The notes under the pieces were generated by a model that was given only the letters and a program-made list of their open reading frames with translations, ran no database searches and was not told where the DNA came from. Positions 1,967 to 12,112 of a stretch of DNA of 16,909 nucleotides are shown here, piece by piece. Position 1 is the first letter of the stretch. The number at the start of each line of letters is the position of its first letter. The stretch lies in the UHGV virus genome UHGV-0043514, one strand, 5' to 3'. Source of the DNA: a virus. Made by a program: the position numbers and the translations under genes.

Positions 1967-2573
1967 GCTCCTTTAATCGAGGCGGTTCTGGTAGAGGCAT
2001 CCAGTGTGATGGTATCCACGACGCACCAGGAATTATCCACCCATCATTAGCGTCAGGATGCCCAGGGATGTAAGTCGCCCATTTCATTCGCCAGTCACCT
2101 TTCCTGTCAAACTCCCTGGCAACAAGAACGGCTGTTTTGCTATCCGGCATTCGCTCACTACAGCTTATCCAACCATCCGGAGTTACCGGAGAGTTGCCCG
2201 ACAGCTCGTTCAACTTGTAAGTCTGGCTTACAAGTTCGGCTTCCAGTTCTGCTATGCGCTTCTCTGATGCTTCAAGTAACGCCTGCTTATCGCGTAGCGC
2301 TTCTTCCAGTTCAGCAACATGGCACTCACTATCAATAAGGTTGTTCTCTGCGGCTTCCAGCTCAACACGCAGCTTCCCTACCGTTAGCGCAATATCCTCG
2401 TTCTCCTGGTCGCGGCGTTTGATGTATTGCTGGTTTCTTTCCCGTTCATCCAGCAGTGCCAGCACAACCTGAGGTGTGACTTTCATACGAAATGCCAGCA
2501 ATTTTTGAGGCGTTGCTACTGTTTCAATTGCTACTGCTGCCTCACGCAGTACCTGATAGTCAATCTTGCTCAC
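1962..2573 (-). CDS. Ea22-like accessory protein with central coiled coil and C-terminal DUF551-like domain (203 aa from GTG 2573; track gives 210 aa from GTG 2594)
   Basis: Heptad-rich [44 protein letters not shown]; C-terminus [19 protein letters not shown]...[13 protein letters not shown] resembles DUF551; AGGAGG sits 6 nt upstream of GTG 2573, and the stop of the upstream ORF overlaps it as GTGA. Confidence 0.65.
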
Positions 2574-2736
2574 TGGTTGCCTCCTTTGCGCCACATCGCA
2601 TTCAGATATTTGTTTTTATTCACTGAAGGAAAAGAATTTCTCTTAAGCAATTCCTCTCTCGATGGCATTGGCTTTACGCGTTGGCGAATAATCATTTCTG
2701 CCGGAAGAATGCCGGGATTGTATGCAAGTCCTCTCA
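2570..2736 (-). CDS. Small hypothetical protein (55 aa), translationally coupled to the Ea22-like gene
   Basis: ATG 2736 preceded by AGAGGA with 7-nt spacing; [55 protein letters not shown]; not in the supplied ORF track. Confidence 0.3.
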
Positions 2737-2753
2737 TGGTAAATTCCTCTTTG

Positions 2754-3068
2754 TTAATTTATTCGTATGCCTGCTCTTTCTTCATCGAGTTTTTTTAGCT
2801 TGTATCGCATAGCCCTTACTGAATAAATTGAGCGGCAGGTTGCAATTGCTATTTCTTCTGCGGAGAACTTACCGAAAAGTGATACTTCGGCTCTTGTCCA
2901 GCGTCTTCCACGAAGTCGGCTAACAATGTCAGCGCCAATCCTTGTTGCTTTCGCCATTACTGCTTTTTCAGTCCTTTCCAGTTTTTCAGCGATAACTTCA
3001 ACTGGCATTGTCGCCGCCACTTCGCGCAAGAAATCGACTTCCCATTTCTCCCATGGAGTCTTTTTCAT
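2754..3068 (-). CDS. Hypothetical phage protein (104 aa) with two tandem Myb/SANT-like helical repeats
   Basis: Internal duplication [40 protein letters not shown] versus [35 protein letters not shown]; pattern W-T-x-x-E ... EEIA ... R ... A resembles homeodomain-like DNA-binding repeats. Confidence 0.45.
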
Positions 3069-3079
3069 AGGCGATACCG

Positions 3080-3562
3080 TTATTTGATAAGAAGTGAAGG
3101 TTTCCCAACTTTGAGTTGAGCGCCGGGGATATTTATTCCTGCTTTTAGTTGGTGTTTGATTGCCAGTTTGTCGGCTTTAATTGTCGTTTCAAACTCAACG
3201 TATTCAGAAGGAAGGGCGCTTGAGTCGATGATTTCTACAGTTTCTGACGGTTTGCGGATTGTTACCTGGTGAATACCTGCTCGAATCTTTTTCTTGCCAA
3301 CCATTTCAAGCGATGACGCTATATACGCCATAATGCTGTCAATCTTATTTTGAATTACTGCGGCTCGCTCATTCAGTGACTTTGCCTCTTCCTTGAGGCG
3401 TTCGGCATAACCAGATTCATTTTTAATGACGGAAAGAAGTTGCTCTATTTTATCGGTAAATTCTCCTTCCATGCCTTCTATTGTGTCAGCAATCATCTCT
3501 GGTTCTAAATCTGAATCCATCAATTTTGCGTATTCATTGGCAATTTCATACAGTTTGCTCAC
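3080..3562 (-). CDS. Mu Gam-like / Sipho_Gp157-like protein, putative DNA-end-binding host-nuclease inhibitor (160 aa from GTG 3562; track gives TTG 3568)
   Basis: N-terminal coiled coil, C-terminal KKKIRAGIHQVTIRKPSETVEIID...KLAIKHQLKAGINIPGAQLKVG resembles the Mu Gam family pattern; directly downstream of recT; GGAGG 6 nt upstream of the GTG. Confidence 0.5.
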   Translation of the reverse strand: MSKLYEIANEYAKLMDSDLEPEMIADTIEGMEGEFTDKIEQLLSVIKNESGYAERLKEEAKSLNERAAVIQNKIDSIMAYIASSLEMVGKKKIRAGIHQVTIRKPSETVEIIDSSALPSEYVEFETTIKADKLAIKHQLKAGINIPGAQLKVGKPSLLIK

Positions 3563-4448
3563 TGGCAACCTCCAGTTTCGCTTTGCATTCTGCGTAAATG
3601 GCTTGTACGTTCTGCTGCAATTTCATTCCAGATGTCAGGCGATATGCTTCTGCAAAATATCGCTTCAAATCATCCATGTTTTCAGCATGAGCCATTTCAT
3701 CACAAAGAAGTTGTGCTTTTTCCATTATTTCCTGCTGGCGTTTCCGTTCATCTTCGCGGATATCTTCCTCTGATTTGTGCGGCATAACTGGTTCCTGATG
3801 CATACCTTCATCTTCGTTAAGCAGGTGAATGGCATTATCCAGTCGCTGGGCTTTAGGCCAGTATTTGCTGGCGCGTTTAACTATTGTTTTACGTGCCATC
3901 TCTTCCCAGAATGTTTTCCACGGTCCATTCTTTGCCTTGCTCGTTGCTTCCACAGCTTTAATTTCTGCCAGACTCATTTCTTCAGTCAGGTAGTCACCAT
4001 CTGCTGTTTTAACCGTGCAATAACCTCCAACAATAGAGCCTCGCTCACCAAATGCGTTGTATTTGTGGGTTGGTGCTGAATCAAGGCCATTTGATTCATA
4101 GGTGTCGTTTGAGTACACCAGTTTGCATTGCCCCCACTTAATTGATCCTGTCGATTGCGCAAGATGAAGTAATCCCATGTAACTGATATCAAGGCACACC
4201 ATGCCGTCGCGAGGAACCAGATAAGCCAGTTTGCTGGCCGGGTTTAAGGTGATGCCGATCGCCGCAACATTGATGATGGCGTTCTGTGCGCTGGTTGGAT
4301 TTGCCAGTGCTGTTTTAGCCAGGTAATCGTTTTTCTGGAAATACTGAATTGCAAACTGGCTTTCCTTAGCCCATGTCACCGTCTGTTCAGTCAATGCTCC
4401 GCAGAATAACTGCTCTTGCTGTTTAACGAATTCAACGATATTGCTCAT
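3546..4448 (-). CDS. recT: RecT-family single-strand annealing recombinase (300 aa)
   Basis: Size and sequence character of RecT/Red-beta family proteins (VAAIGITLNPASKLAYLVPRDGMVCLDISYMGL...KTIVKRASKYWP); occupies the bet position of the pL operon. Confidence 0.8.
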   Translation of the reverse strand: MSNIVEFVKQQEQLFCGALTEQTVTWAKESQFAIQYFQKNDYLAKTALANPTSAQNAIINVAAIGITLNPASKLAYLVPRDGMVCLDISYMGLLHLAQSTGSIKWGQCKLVYSNDTYESNGLDSAPTHKYNAFGERGSIVGGYCTVKTADGDYLTEEMSLAEIKAVEATSKAKNGPWKTFWEEMARKTIVKRASKYWPKAQRLDNAIHLLNEDEGMHQEPVMPHKSEEDIREDERKRQQEIMEKAQLLCDEMAHAENMDDLKRYFAEAYRLTSGMKLQQNVQAIYAECKAKLEVASEQTV

Positions 4449-4756
4449 GCAGCTTCTCCATAAATATGTCTGCGTTTGAATATTGCGAAGGCATATTCAG
4501 CCTTAACTCTTTCGGTTATTGCATCCCAGAACCATTCAGCGGCTTTTTCCTGATAGTTACAGTCATCATCTTCCAGCCAGTCGATAGCGTCCTTAGTGTG
4601 TTCATCTGGTTTATATGAGCGAAGCATTTCGCTTATTGGGTCGCAACGTTTGCAGAGGCGATCAACTTCACTGTTGATTCGTTCGTAATCTTCATCAGTA
4701 AAACTTGCGATTATTTGCGATATTTCACGCTTATCATTCAGAGTCAGAATCATCAT
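4445..4756 (-). CDS. Hypothetical acidic protein (103 aa) at the position lambda uses for gam
   Basis: Strong AGGAG Shine-Dalgarno upstream of the ATG ATG start; stop overlaps the recT start as ATGA; Cys-containing (CKRCD, DDDCNY), Asp/Glu-rich; no family recognised. Confidence 0.55.
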   Translation of the reverse strand: MMILTLNDKREISQIIASFTDEDYERINSEVDRLCKRCDPISEMLRSYKPDEHTKDAIDWLEDDDCNYQEKAAEWFWDAITERVKAEYAFAIFKRRHIYGEAA

Positions 4757-11185: not shown

Positions 11186-11588
11186 CGCCATAGACGCCAT
11201 TCTCTCACTACCCATCGACGACAAGTCACCCCACGAAGTCCACGTTAGAGAACCCAAACGCAGCAAAGCGCAGAATGACCGTATGTGGCCGATGCTGAAC
11301 GATGTTTCGCGTCAGGTGCTATGGCATGGTCAACGGCTGGCGCCGGAAGACTGGAAAGACCTGTTCACTGCCCTGTGGCTTAAGACCAAAAAAATGGAGC
11401 AAAGAAGTGCGCCTGGTATCGACGGTGGCGTTGTTATGCTTGGCGTGCGTACCAGCAAAATGCGAAAGGCCAGCATGACTGAGCTTATCGAAATCATGTT
11501 CTGGTTCGGCTCAGAGCGCAACGTGCGGTGGAGTGATGACTCCCGGCGAGAGTATGAATGGTCACAACGAAAAGGGAAGGCTGCATGA
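11142..11588 (+). CDS. ninB: NinB-family protein (recombination-associated, lambda orf146 type; 148 aa)
   Basis: QNDRMWPMLNDVSRQVLWHGQRLAPEDWKDLFTA...[21 protein letters not shown] parallels lambda NinB (QNRKLWACLGDVSRQVEWHGRWLDAESWKCVFTA...) as recalled. Confidence 0.85.
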   Translation: MKQIYILRNEAIRNNAIDAILSLPIDDKSPHEVHVREPKRSKAQNDRMWPMLNDVSRQVLWHGQRLAPEDWKDLFTALWLKTKKMEQRSAPGIDGGVVMLGVRTSKMRKASMTELIEIMFWFGSERNVRWSDDSRREYEWSQRKGKAA

Positions 11589-12112
11589 CTATCAAATCAA
11601 ATACGCCATCACACGACAAGGACTGCTGGCAAACGCCGCTTTGGCTTTTTGATGCGCTGGATATTGAGTTTGGATTCTGGCTGGACTCGGCAGCGAGCGA
11701 CAAAAATGCTCTGTGCGCTCACTGGCTAACTGAGGCCGACGACGCGCTAAATTCTGAGTGGATAAGCCACGGTGCAATCTGGAATAACCCACCGTACAGC
11801 AATATCAGGCCGTGGGTGGAAAAAGCCGCTGAGCAGTGCATACAACAGCGACAGACGGTAGTTATGCTTGTGCCAGAGGATATGTCAGTCGGATGGTTCA
11901 GCAAGGCTCTGGAGAGTGTCGACGAAGTTCGCATTATCACTGATGGACGGATTAATTTTATCGAACCATCGACAGGGCTGGAGAAGAAGGGAAACAGCAA
12001 AGGCTCCATGCTGCTGATTTGGCGACCGTTCATCAGTCCTCGACGGATGTTTACTACCGTATCCAAAGCGGCATTGATGGCGATCGGGCAGGGCGTCAGG
12101 AGGGCGGCATGA
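11585..12112 (+). CDS. dam: Phage orphan DNA N6-adenine methyltransferase (Dam-like; 175 aa from ATG 11585, the track's ORF starts at 11558)
   Basis: Catalytic NPPY motif (IWNNPPYSN); N-terminal [22 protein letters not shown] typical of phage Dam-type methyltransferases; ATGA overlap with the ninB stop; no restriction endonuclease partner seen. Confidence 0.8.

Follow-up and report, generated by a model that had tools for sequence, protein, structure and literature searches.

The window analysed here, the 16,909-nucleotide virus genome UHGV-0043514, carries on its minus strand two small neighbouring genes, encoding proteins of 104 and 55 amino acids (aa), directly upstream of an Ead/Ea22-like gene. 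Both are genuine genes of the early-left operon, and we consider it probable that the region comprises two independent units: an Abc1-like, bipartite helix-turn-helix (HTH) DNA-binding accessory of the adjoining recombination (Rec) module, which is the 104-aa protein, and an unrelated protein of the DUF2737 family. A first-pass annotation of this DNA, made from the sequence alone, had placed both open reading frames (ORFs) correctly, noted an internal duplication in the 104-aa protein and proposed a pair of small DNA-binding proteins that may regulate host or prophage genes. Its observation was confirmed and its interpretation is partly supported. It missed the tie of the 104-aa family to Rec modules and its resemblance to Abc1 of phage P22, both of which argue for a Rec-module accessory rather than a generic host or prophage regulator.

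The internal repeat of the 104-aa protein is genuine, as the first-pass annotation had held. Its signature motifs (W6..E10..VIAEKLER in repeat 1 and W57-T58..E61..EEIAIATCR in repeat 2) fall in conserved columns of the family alignment, and those of repeat 1 agree with the canonical W-T-x-E-E-x-F-L..EIAE-LGRS..A-RA-LG of multi-repeat relatives. Aligning one half of the protein against the other with BLOSUM62 gave no significant score (21 versus a shuffle mean of 21.4), a null result outweighed by third copies and by profile and structure evidence. Homologues of 150 aa carry a third copy, and hhalign comparisons between repeats gave E=7e-11 for repeat 2 versus repeat 3 and E=2.5e-4 for repeat 1 versus repeat 2. 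When 1.84 billion representatives were searched with the family profile, 3282 proteins matched at E<1e-3, many of them long and with up to 10 matched stretches. The AlphaFold2 model (predicted local distance difference test score, pLDDT, 82.4) consists of two equivalent three-helix units, in keeping with the helical, Myb/SANT/homeodomain-like fold that had been anticipated for this protein. The gene has a ratio of nonsynonymous to synonymous substitution rates (dN/dS) of 0.066 relative to its copy in Salmonella SEN22.

Structure comparison points to DNA-binding domains (DBDs). The best structural match is the Caulobacter GcrA DBD (PDB 5yiu), whose N-terminal fold the protein shares, and all close matches are DBDs; matches in BFVD include many phage proteins of about 100 aa together with proteins named 'Myb-like', 'GcrA' and 'D5'. 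A whole-chain Foldseek search of the model against the PDB returned nothing significant, as expected of two flexibly linked domains, and its top entries were bipartite HTH proteins (Pax, DUX4, Tc3). Sequence searches of the PDB with the whole protein and with repeat profiles gave noise or weak NarL/HTH and Myb matches, and searches of NCBIfam and PADLOC gave nothing relevant.

In fold and superfamily the protein is Myb/SANT/homeodomain-like; by HMM score it is not a member of the Pfam Myb or GcrA families. It has the Myb/SANT-type layout of tandem three-helix repeats of about 45–50 residues that open with W-x-x-x-E or W-T-x-x-E. Myb repeats contain three regularly spaced tryptophans each; here the first alone is retained, the later positions being I26 and I44 in repeat 1 and I73 and Y89 in repeat 2. 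Neither the whole protein nor either repeat matched PF00249 (gathering score 24.4 bits), even at E<=10, and the whole protein did not match GcrA PF07750 (26.9 bits). GcrA has a C-terminal sigma-70-binding domain after a linker (the Pfam model spans 155 positions), for which there is no room in 104 residues taken up by two DBD-like repeats plus a tail of 11 residues. A sigma factor identity was rejected: the protein is far too short and does not match sigma-70 region 4 (PF08281), against which its homologues score 20–25 bits (cut-off 25.7). Among PHROGs, it matches phrog_11492, which has no function assigned (E=4.6e-23), and residues 2–99 align with positions 145–269 of the 319 in phrog_323, 'transcriptional regulator, D5-like' (E=2.8e-20), a multi-repeat profile that leaves the register ambiguous and carries its functional label by transfer. 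An end-to-end match to phrog_11492 was obtained with the three-repeat homologue P0030 (E=8.5e-69). RefSeq lists the 104-aa protein as a 'hypothetical protein'; it adds a member to a known kind of phage protein (Myb/GcrA-like HTH, Abc1-like).

The repeat, of about 45 aa, also occurs in long tandem arrays with up to 10 matched stretches in the metagenomic proteins P0172, P0186 (896 aa), P0178, P0204 and P0274, which Pfam calls Myb_DNA-binding, GcrA or Sigma70_r4_2. P0172 (807 aa) joins a ResIII/Helicase_C helicase to nine copies of W-T-Q-E-E-D-x-F-L..EIAEHLGRS..RA..LGI and matches Myb_DNA-binding (PF00249) at 140 bits (E=2e-41); P0186, P0204 and P0274 match GcrA (PF07750). Support for placing the 104-aa protein with Pfam Myb is transitive only, through P0172.

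The 104-aa family is linked to recombination genes. All 76 informative loci retrieved with the protein have the order orf103 > recT > gp157 > 104-aa gene; orf103 always precedes RecT in this lineage. A scan for related loci with the family alignment yielded near-identical loci only and informs counts rather than diversity. The 104-aa ATG lies 11 nucleotides (nt) past the Gp157 stop and has no Shine-Dalgarno (SD) sequence of its own, which is consistent with coupled expression. Distant members of the family, down to 33% identity, stand immediately 3' of the last Rec gene, often with overlaps of 1–4 nt, and follow at least six kinds of Rec module (Table 1). Several of these modules contain proteins without known function in the slot of an annealing protein or its partner, namely phrog_21613, phrog_11517 and phrog_3486.

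P22 Abc1 falls into the same PHROG as the 104-aa protein (phrog_323, E=1.3e-23), and the record of phage Gally labels the latter 'Anti-RecBCD protein 1, similar to P22 Abc1'. A hidden Markov model (HMM) of the 104-aa family aligns collinearly with residues 12–93 of Abc1 (18.2 bits; E=1.1e-7 as a single comparison), and an hhalign comparison spans 76 columns. The second half of Abc1 (94 aa) reads R-W-S-D-D-E-D..NVAKILGRSEESVKSRL, the same layout as in the 104-aa protein, which also has the Abc1-type architecture of two HTH units in about 95–105 aa encoded at the distal end of a Rec module in the pL operon. The Abc1 family itself is too narrow (at least 88% identity) for a useful profile. In our view the two proteins have a superfamily and an architecture in common, with orthology unproven. 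The supplement of Silas et al. describes Abc1 as two GcrA-DBD-like HTH domains; the same study reports that Abc1 expression triggers a cell-death response encoded by a P4 satellite in ECOR15 and sensitises several hosts to phages. Its 200-gene accessory screen includes neither the 104-aa protein nor DUF2737. NCBI names Abc1 homologues (P22 abc1 and P0315–P0330) 'sigma-70 family RNA polymerase sigma factor', which looks like over-annotation from a region-4 HTH match, as a 94-aa protein with two HTH units cannot be one. In Erf-type E. coli loci (L005–L084), the erf–abc2 interval holds SSB, HNH-endonuclease or DnaQ-like exonuclease genes, and not Abc1, in the place that Abc1 takes in P22.

From fold, charge and conserved position we infer that the 104-aa protein binds DNA and is linked to recombination. 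It would most likely act as a bipartite reader of double-stranded DNA that places helix 3 of either repeat in the groove, in the manner of R2R3 Myb or of the bipartite domains of Tc3 and Pax. As a counterpart of P22 Abc1, presumably co-expressed with RecT and the Mu-Gam-like protein, it may aid phage recombination or counter functions of the host or of satellites, both of which have been reported for Abc1. The assignment as a Rec-module accessory follows from the shared PHROG, the two-HTH architecture, the structural match and the same promoter-distal slot as Abc1.

Several observations weigh against this assignment. BLASTP of the 104-aa protein against P22 Abc1 found nothing, the hhalign probability is only 14%, and much of the HMM score could be generic HTH signal rather than specific kinship. 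No Pfam family scored above threshold with the 104-aa protein, the closest being HTH_12 (20.7 bits, cut-off 21.4). Repeat 1 lacks a basic charge, and repeats of the SANT type are often binders of protein rather than DNA. The close SEN22 homologue lies behind a different Rec module, so the gene is not co-inherited with any one recombinase, and P0217 is an exception that stands ahead of Dam and C5-methylase genes with no Rec module in view. The slot after the Rec module is also where the ea accessory genes begin, and the adjacency could partly be positional coincidence. A 2025 survey (PMC12315714) describes Abc1 as helpful to recombination without being required for it, and gives its molecular function as unknown.

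The same HTH/Myb-like fold would suit a plain transcription regulator that recognises specific sequences at promoters of the phage, the host or a competing prophage and whose position behind Rec genes is incidental, a reading that is unlikely but deserves the most weight among the alternatives. The label of phrog_323 and the P0217 homologue are in line with it, as is the suggestion of Silas et al. that the Abc1-triggered P4 response reflects interference with P4 transcriptional control. It is countered by the slot 3' of the last Rec gene, which is kept across at least six unrelated types of Rec module and often with overlapping stop and start codons, and no operator-like target was identified. 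Mutants of Abc1 are moreover reported to affect homologous recombination (PMC12315714).

Rather less probable is that the repeats are SANT-like protein-interaction modules, with RecBCD, the single-strand annealing protein, the Gam-like protein or RNA polymerase as partner. SANT domains are neutral to acidic, like repeat 1, which is so in most family members and which has an invariant E-K-L-E-R motif in place of the usual L-G-R-S turn. Abc1 takes its name from an anti-RecBCD phenotype and adjoins Abc2, described as a RecC binder (PMC9836394). The strongly basic repeat 2 (net charge +8; overall isoelectric point, pI, 10.0, with repeat 1 neutral) and the restriction of close structural matches to DBDs speak against protein binding, and affinity purification–mass spectrometry of Abc1 is reported to have given no clear partner (PMC12373910).

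A still fainter prospect is that the Abc1-like family acts as a GcrA-type reader of DNA state, sensing adenine methylation, hemimethylation or recombination intermediates; it would steer the Rec module, or early transcription, towards DNA that is newly replicated or foreign. GcrA, the best structural match, senses methylation through this DBD, and in three lineages homologues lie, with a 4-nt stop/start overlap, upstream of a phage Dam-type N6-adenine methyltransferase gene. In a fourth lineage (P0305) Dam sits between recT and gp157 inside the Rec module, and a further hint is that the family keeps its terminal position in at least six Rec-module kinds. Dam adjacency combined with a GcrA-DBD-like fold is suggestive, but the lineages are few and the numbers small. 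The prophage's own Dam gene (PF05869), in the nin region, was rejected as support; the same Dam is common among lambdoid phages, Stx phages included, in which the 104-aa gene is missing.

The 55-aa gene is an already catalogued DUF and not new. Its product exceeds the gathering score of Pfam DUF2737 (PF10930; 25 bits) as a full-length member, residues 1–51 aligning with positions 1–51 of the 53-position model at 108.9 bits (E=1.1e-31); it also matches phrog_1117 (E=4.8e-37) and is 77% identical to P22 orf56. The first-pass annotation was right that the ORF is missing from the ORF track, which reflects only a length cut-off; RefSeq ('DUF2737 family protein') and the HK140 record already annotate it. 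The frame evolves under purifying selection: among 52 distinct alleles, variable columns number 19, 11 and 33 at the first, second and third codon positions and pairwise pN/pS (the polymorphism counterpart of dN/dS) is 0.11, and comparison with P22 orf56 gives a dN/dS of 0.10 in frame and 1.0–1.7 in the two other frames, as the conservation check proposed in the first-pass annotation had called for. The family is strongly conserved and confined to prophages of Escherichia, Salmonella and Shigella. Among the papers searched, only one mentions it, and no function is known for its members. The protein is small and basic (pI 11), and its AlphaFold2 model has low confidence (pLDDT 62) and three short helices. 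A search of Pfam for an HTH family found no match, and nothing points to DNA binding by DUF2737; the proposed pair of small DNA-binding proteins is not supported. Similarity to Abc2 was considered and rejected.

The translation signals around this gene are as the first-pass annotation described them: a good SD sequence (AAGAGGA) 7 nt ahead of the ATG, and a GTGA overlap of its stop codon with the start of the Ea22-like gene, both conserved in related loci. The sequence GAGGAATTTACC-ATG is kept at the DUF2737 start irrespective of the upstream gene, and similarity among related loci ends at this SD. At the other end, the last codons, K-G-G, encode the AAGGAGG that serves as SD of the Ea22-like gene, and the CAGTGA junction is conserved in 84 loci, right after which the sequence splits into at least five unrelated downstream genes. 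Since the junction is kept while both flanks diverge, DUF2737 is a discrete mosaic module that also acts as a coupling adaptor, a fixed unit that couples the translation of varied ea genes. The junction neatly illustrates a mosaic joint that stays fixed. For the Ea22-like gene, the mechanically made ORF list gives GTG 2594 as the start. We favour GTG 2573 as most likely its true start, on the agreement of the SD, the GTGA overlap, the Pfam Ead_Ea22 model, which picks up the long ORF only from residue 9, and the HK140 annotation, which has a 4-nt overlap between the two genes.

The 104-aa gene and DUF2737 are independent mosaic modules and not an obligate pair. Among 76 DUF2737 loci with enough flanking sequence, the upstream genes are erf..abc2 in 65 and orf103 > recT > gp157 > 104-aa gene in 11, making DUF2737 about six times commoner without the 104-aa gene than with it. 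Of 5426 complete E. coli genomes, 291 carry both genes; DUF2737 alone occurs in about 1266, some 975 more than have the pair. Where the 104-aa gene is present, DUF2737 follows directly in 42/76 loci, and in the other 34 a 93-aa DUF5405 gene is inserted first. That gene is Sf6 gp24-like, a 'replication initiation protein' by PHROG-derived annotation, and is absent from the window, where it would lie between 2737 and 2754. A functional two-protein unit, with the two genes as a coupled pair, is the least likely of the alternatives and very improbable: adjacency of a 104-aa family gene and DUF2737 recurs in E. coli, Salmonella SEN22, Klebsiella P0175 and the P0177 lineage, and P22 has the order abc1 > abc2 > orf56, but DUF2737 mostly occurs without its supposed partner, DUF5405 intervenes, many family members have no DUF2737 downstream, and the SD and the stop codon of DUF2737 coincide exactly with the mosaic boundaries.

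Every gene from position 1 to about 5200 lies on the minus strand, forming the early-left (pL) arm of a lambdoid, P22-like prophage, and DNA 96–99% identical to the region occurs in phages Gally, HK140, mEpX1, Kapi1, Louie and Dewey. Contrary to what had been supposed, the Ea8.5-like gene does not adjoin the 104-aa gene, the Ea22-like gene lying between them.

Table 1. Features of the window and of related loci. Positions with an L prefix refer to other loci; identities are to the 104-aa protein.
Feature	Position	Strand	Remarks
Integrase	1-1074	minus	
Excisionase	1052-1270	minus	
Ea8.5-like gene	1566-1865	minus	
Ead/Ea22-like + DUF551 gene	1962-2573	minus	start most likely GTG 2573
55-aa gene, DUF2737 family	2570-2737	minus	counterpart of P22 orf56 / HK97 gp38; PF10930, phrog_1117, dN/dS, RefSeq
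Coupling junction, SD AAGGAGG + GTGA	2570-2586	minus	SD 2580-2586; GTG 2571-2573; TGA 2570-2572
SD AAGAGGA of DUF2737 gene	2745-2751	minus	7 nt ahead of ATG
104-aa gene, two tandem tri-helical HTH repeats	2754-3068	minus	AlphaFold2 model, repeat family
Repeat 2, residues ~55-95	2784-2906	minus	W57-T58, E61, L64, EEIA71-74, T77, R79-S80, R88; net charge +8
Repeat 1, residues ~4-48	2925-3059	minus	W6, E10, F13-L14, I26-A-E-K-L-E-R32, A41, G45; net charge 0
Upstream Rec module, orf103 > RecT > Gp157	3080-4756	minus	
Gp157/Mu-Gam-like gene	3080-3568	minus	Pfam + PHROG matches
RecT gene	3546-4448	minus	Pfam + PHROG matches
orf103 (phrog_3486)	4445-4756	minus	Pfam + PHROG searches
Dam methyltransferase gene (PF05869), nin region	11558-12112	plus	
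Dam genes near 104-aa homologues	L089:4456-5007, L093:4321-4815, L176:3788-4315, L181:2213-2710		
phrog_21613 gene	L089:2881-3384		
phrog_11517 genes	L090:3414-3998, L094:513-1112		
DUF5405 gene	L001:3446-3727		
P22 abc1	L004:26970-27254		
SEN22			91% identity; exoVIII > 189 aa > homologue > DUF2737
Klebsiella P0175			57% identity; RecT > YqaJ > homologue > DUF2737
P0030			57% identity; Gam > phrog_21613 > YqaJ > homologue > Dam
P0177			50% identity; Gam > RecT > Gp157 > homologue > DUF2737
P0257			48% identity; RecT > Gp157 > homologue
P0205			46% identity; exoVIII > phrog_11517 > homologue
P0244			41% identity; exoVIII > phrog_11517 > homologue
P0283			38% identity; AAA_24 (Sak4-like) > 104 aa > homologue
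P0306			34% identity; Gam > phrog_21613 > YqaJ > homologue > Dam
P0305			33% identity; RecT > Dam > Gp157 > 99 aa > homologue
P22 Abc1			identity not detectable by BLASTP; erf > abc1

With P22 Abc1, the 104-aa protein would belong to a bipartite Myb/GcrA-like HTH family that closes Rec modules of the RecT, Erf, Sak4-like, exoVIII and Gam/YqaJ kinds, a widespread and overlooked candidate Rec-module component. The association with Rec modules is of modest interest, and the family offers a concrete, testable handle on Abc1; reading of DNA state, if true, would give a mechanism for a protein unexplained since 1987.

Compared with known systems, the 104-aa protein shares with eukaryotic-type Myb/SANT proteins (PF00249; R2R3 Myb, CDC5L, SNAPC4) the W-(T/S)-x-x-E start and tandem three-helix repeats, but it scores below the Pfam threshold, keeps only the first tryptophan and is a bacteriophage protein. 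Relative to Caulobacter GcrA, it has two DBD-like units, no C-terminal sigma-70-binding domain and no PF07750 match, and shows no sign of GcrA's methylation-dependent binding. P22 Abc1 (gp35) resembles it in size, in two HTH repeats of matching spacing, in basic pI and in having the GcrA DBD as best structural match, and occupies the same slot, behind the genes for annealing proteins and ahead of DUF2737/orf56. Abc1 differs in lacking the W..E..FL start and EKLER motif found in repeat 1 of the 104-aa protein, in being followed by Abc2, which is absent at the 104-aa locus, and in accompanying Erf, whereas the 104-aa protein accompanies RecT and the Mu-Gam-like protein. The 55-aa gene shares position and GTGA coupling with the DUF2737 members P22 orf56 and HK97 gp38, from which it shows no notable difference.

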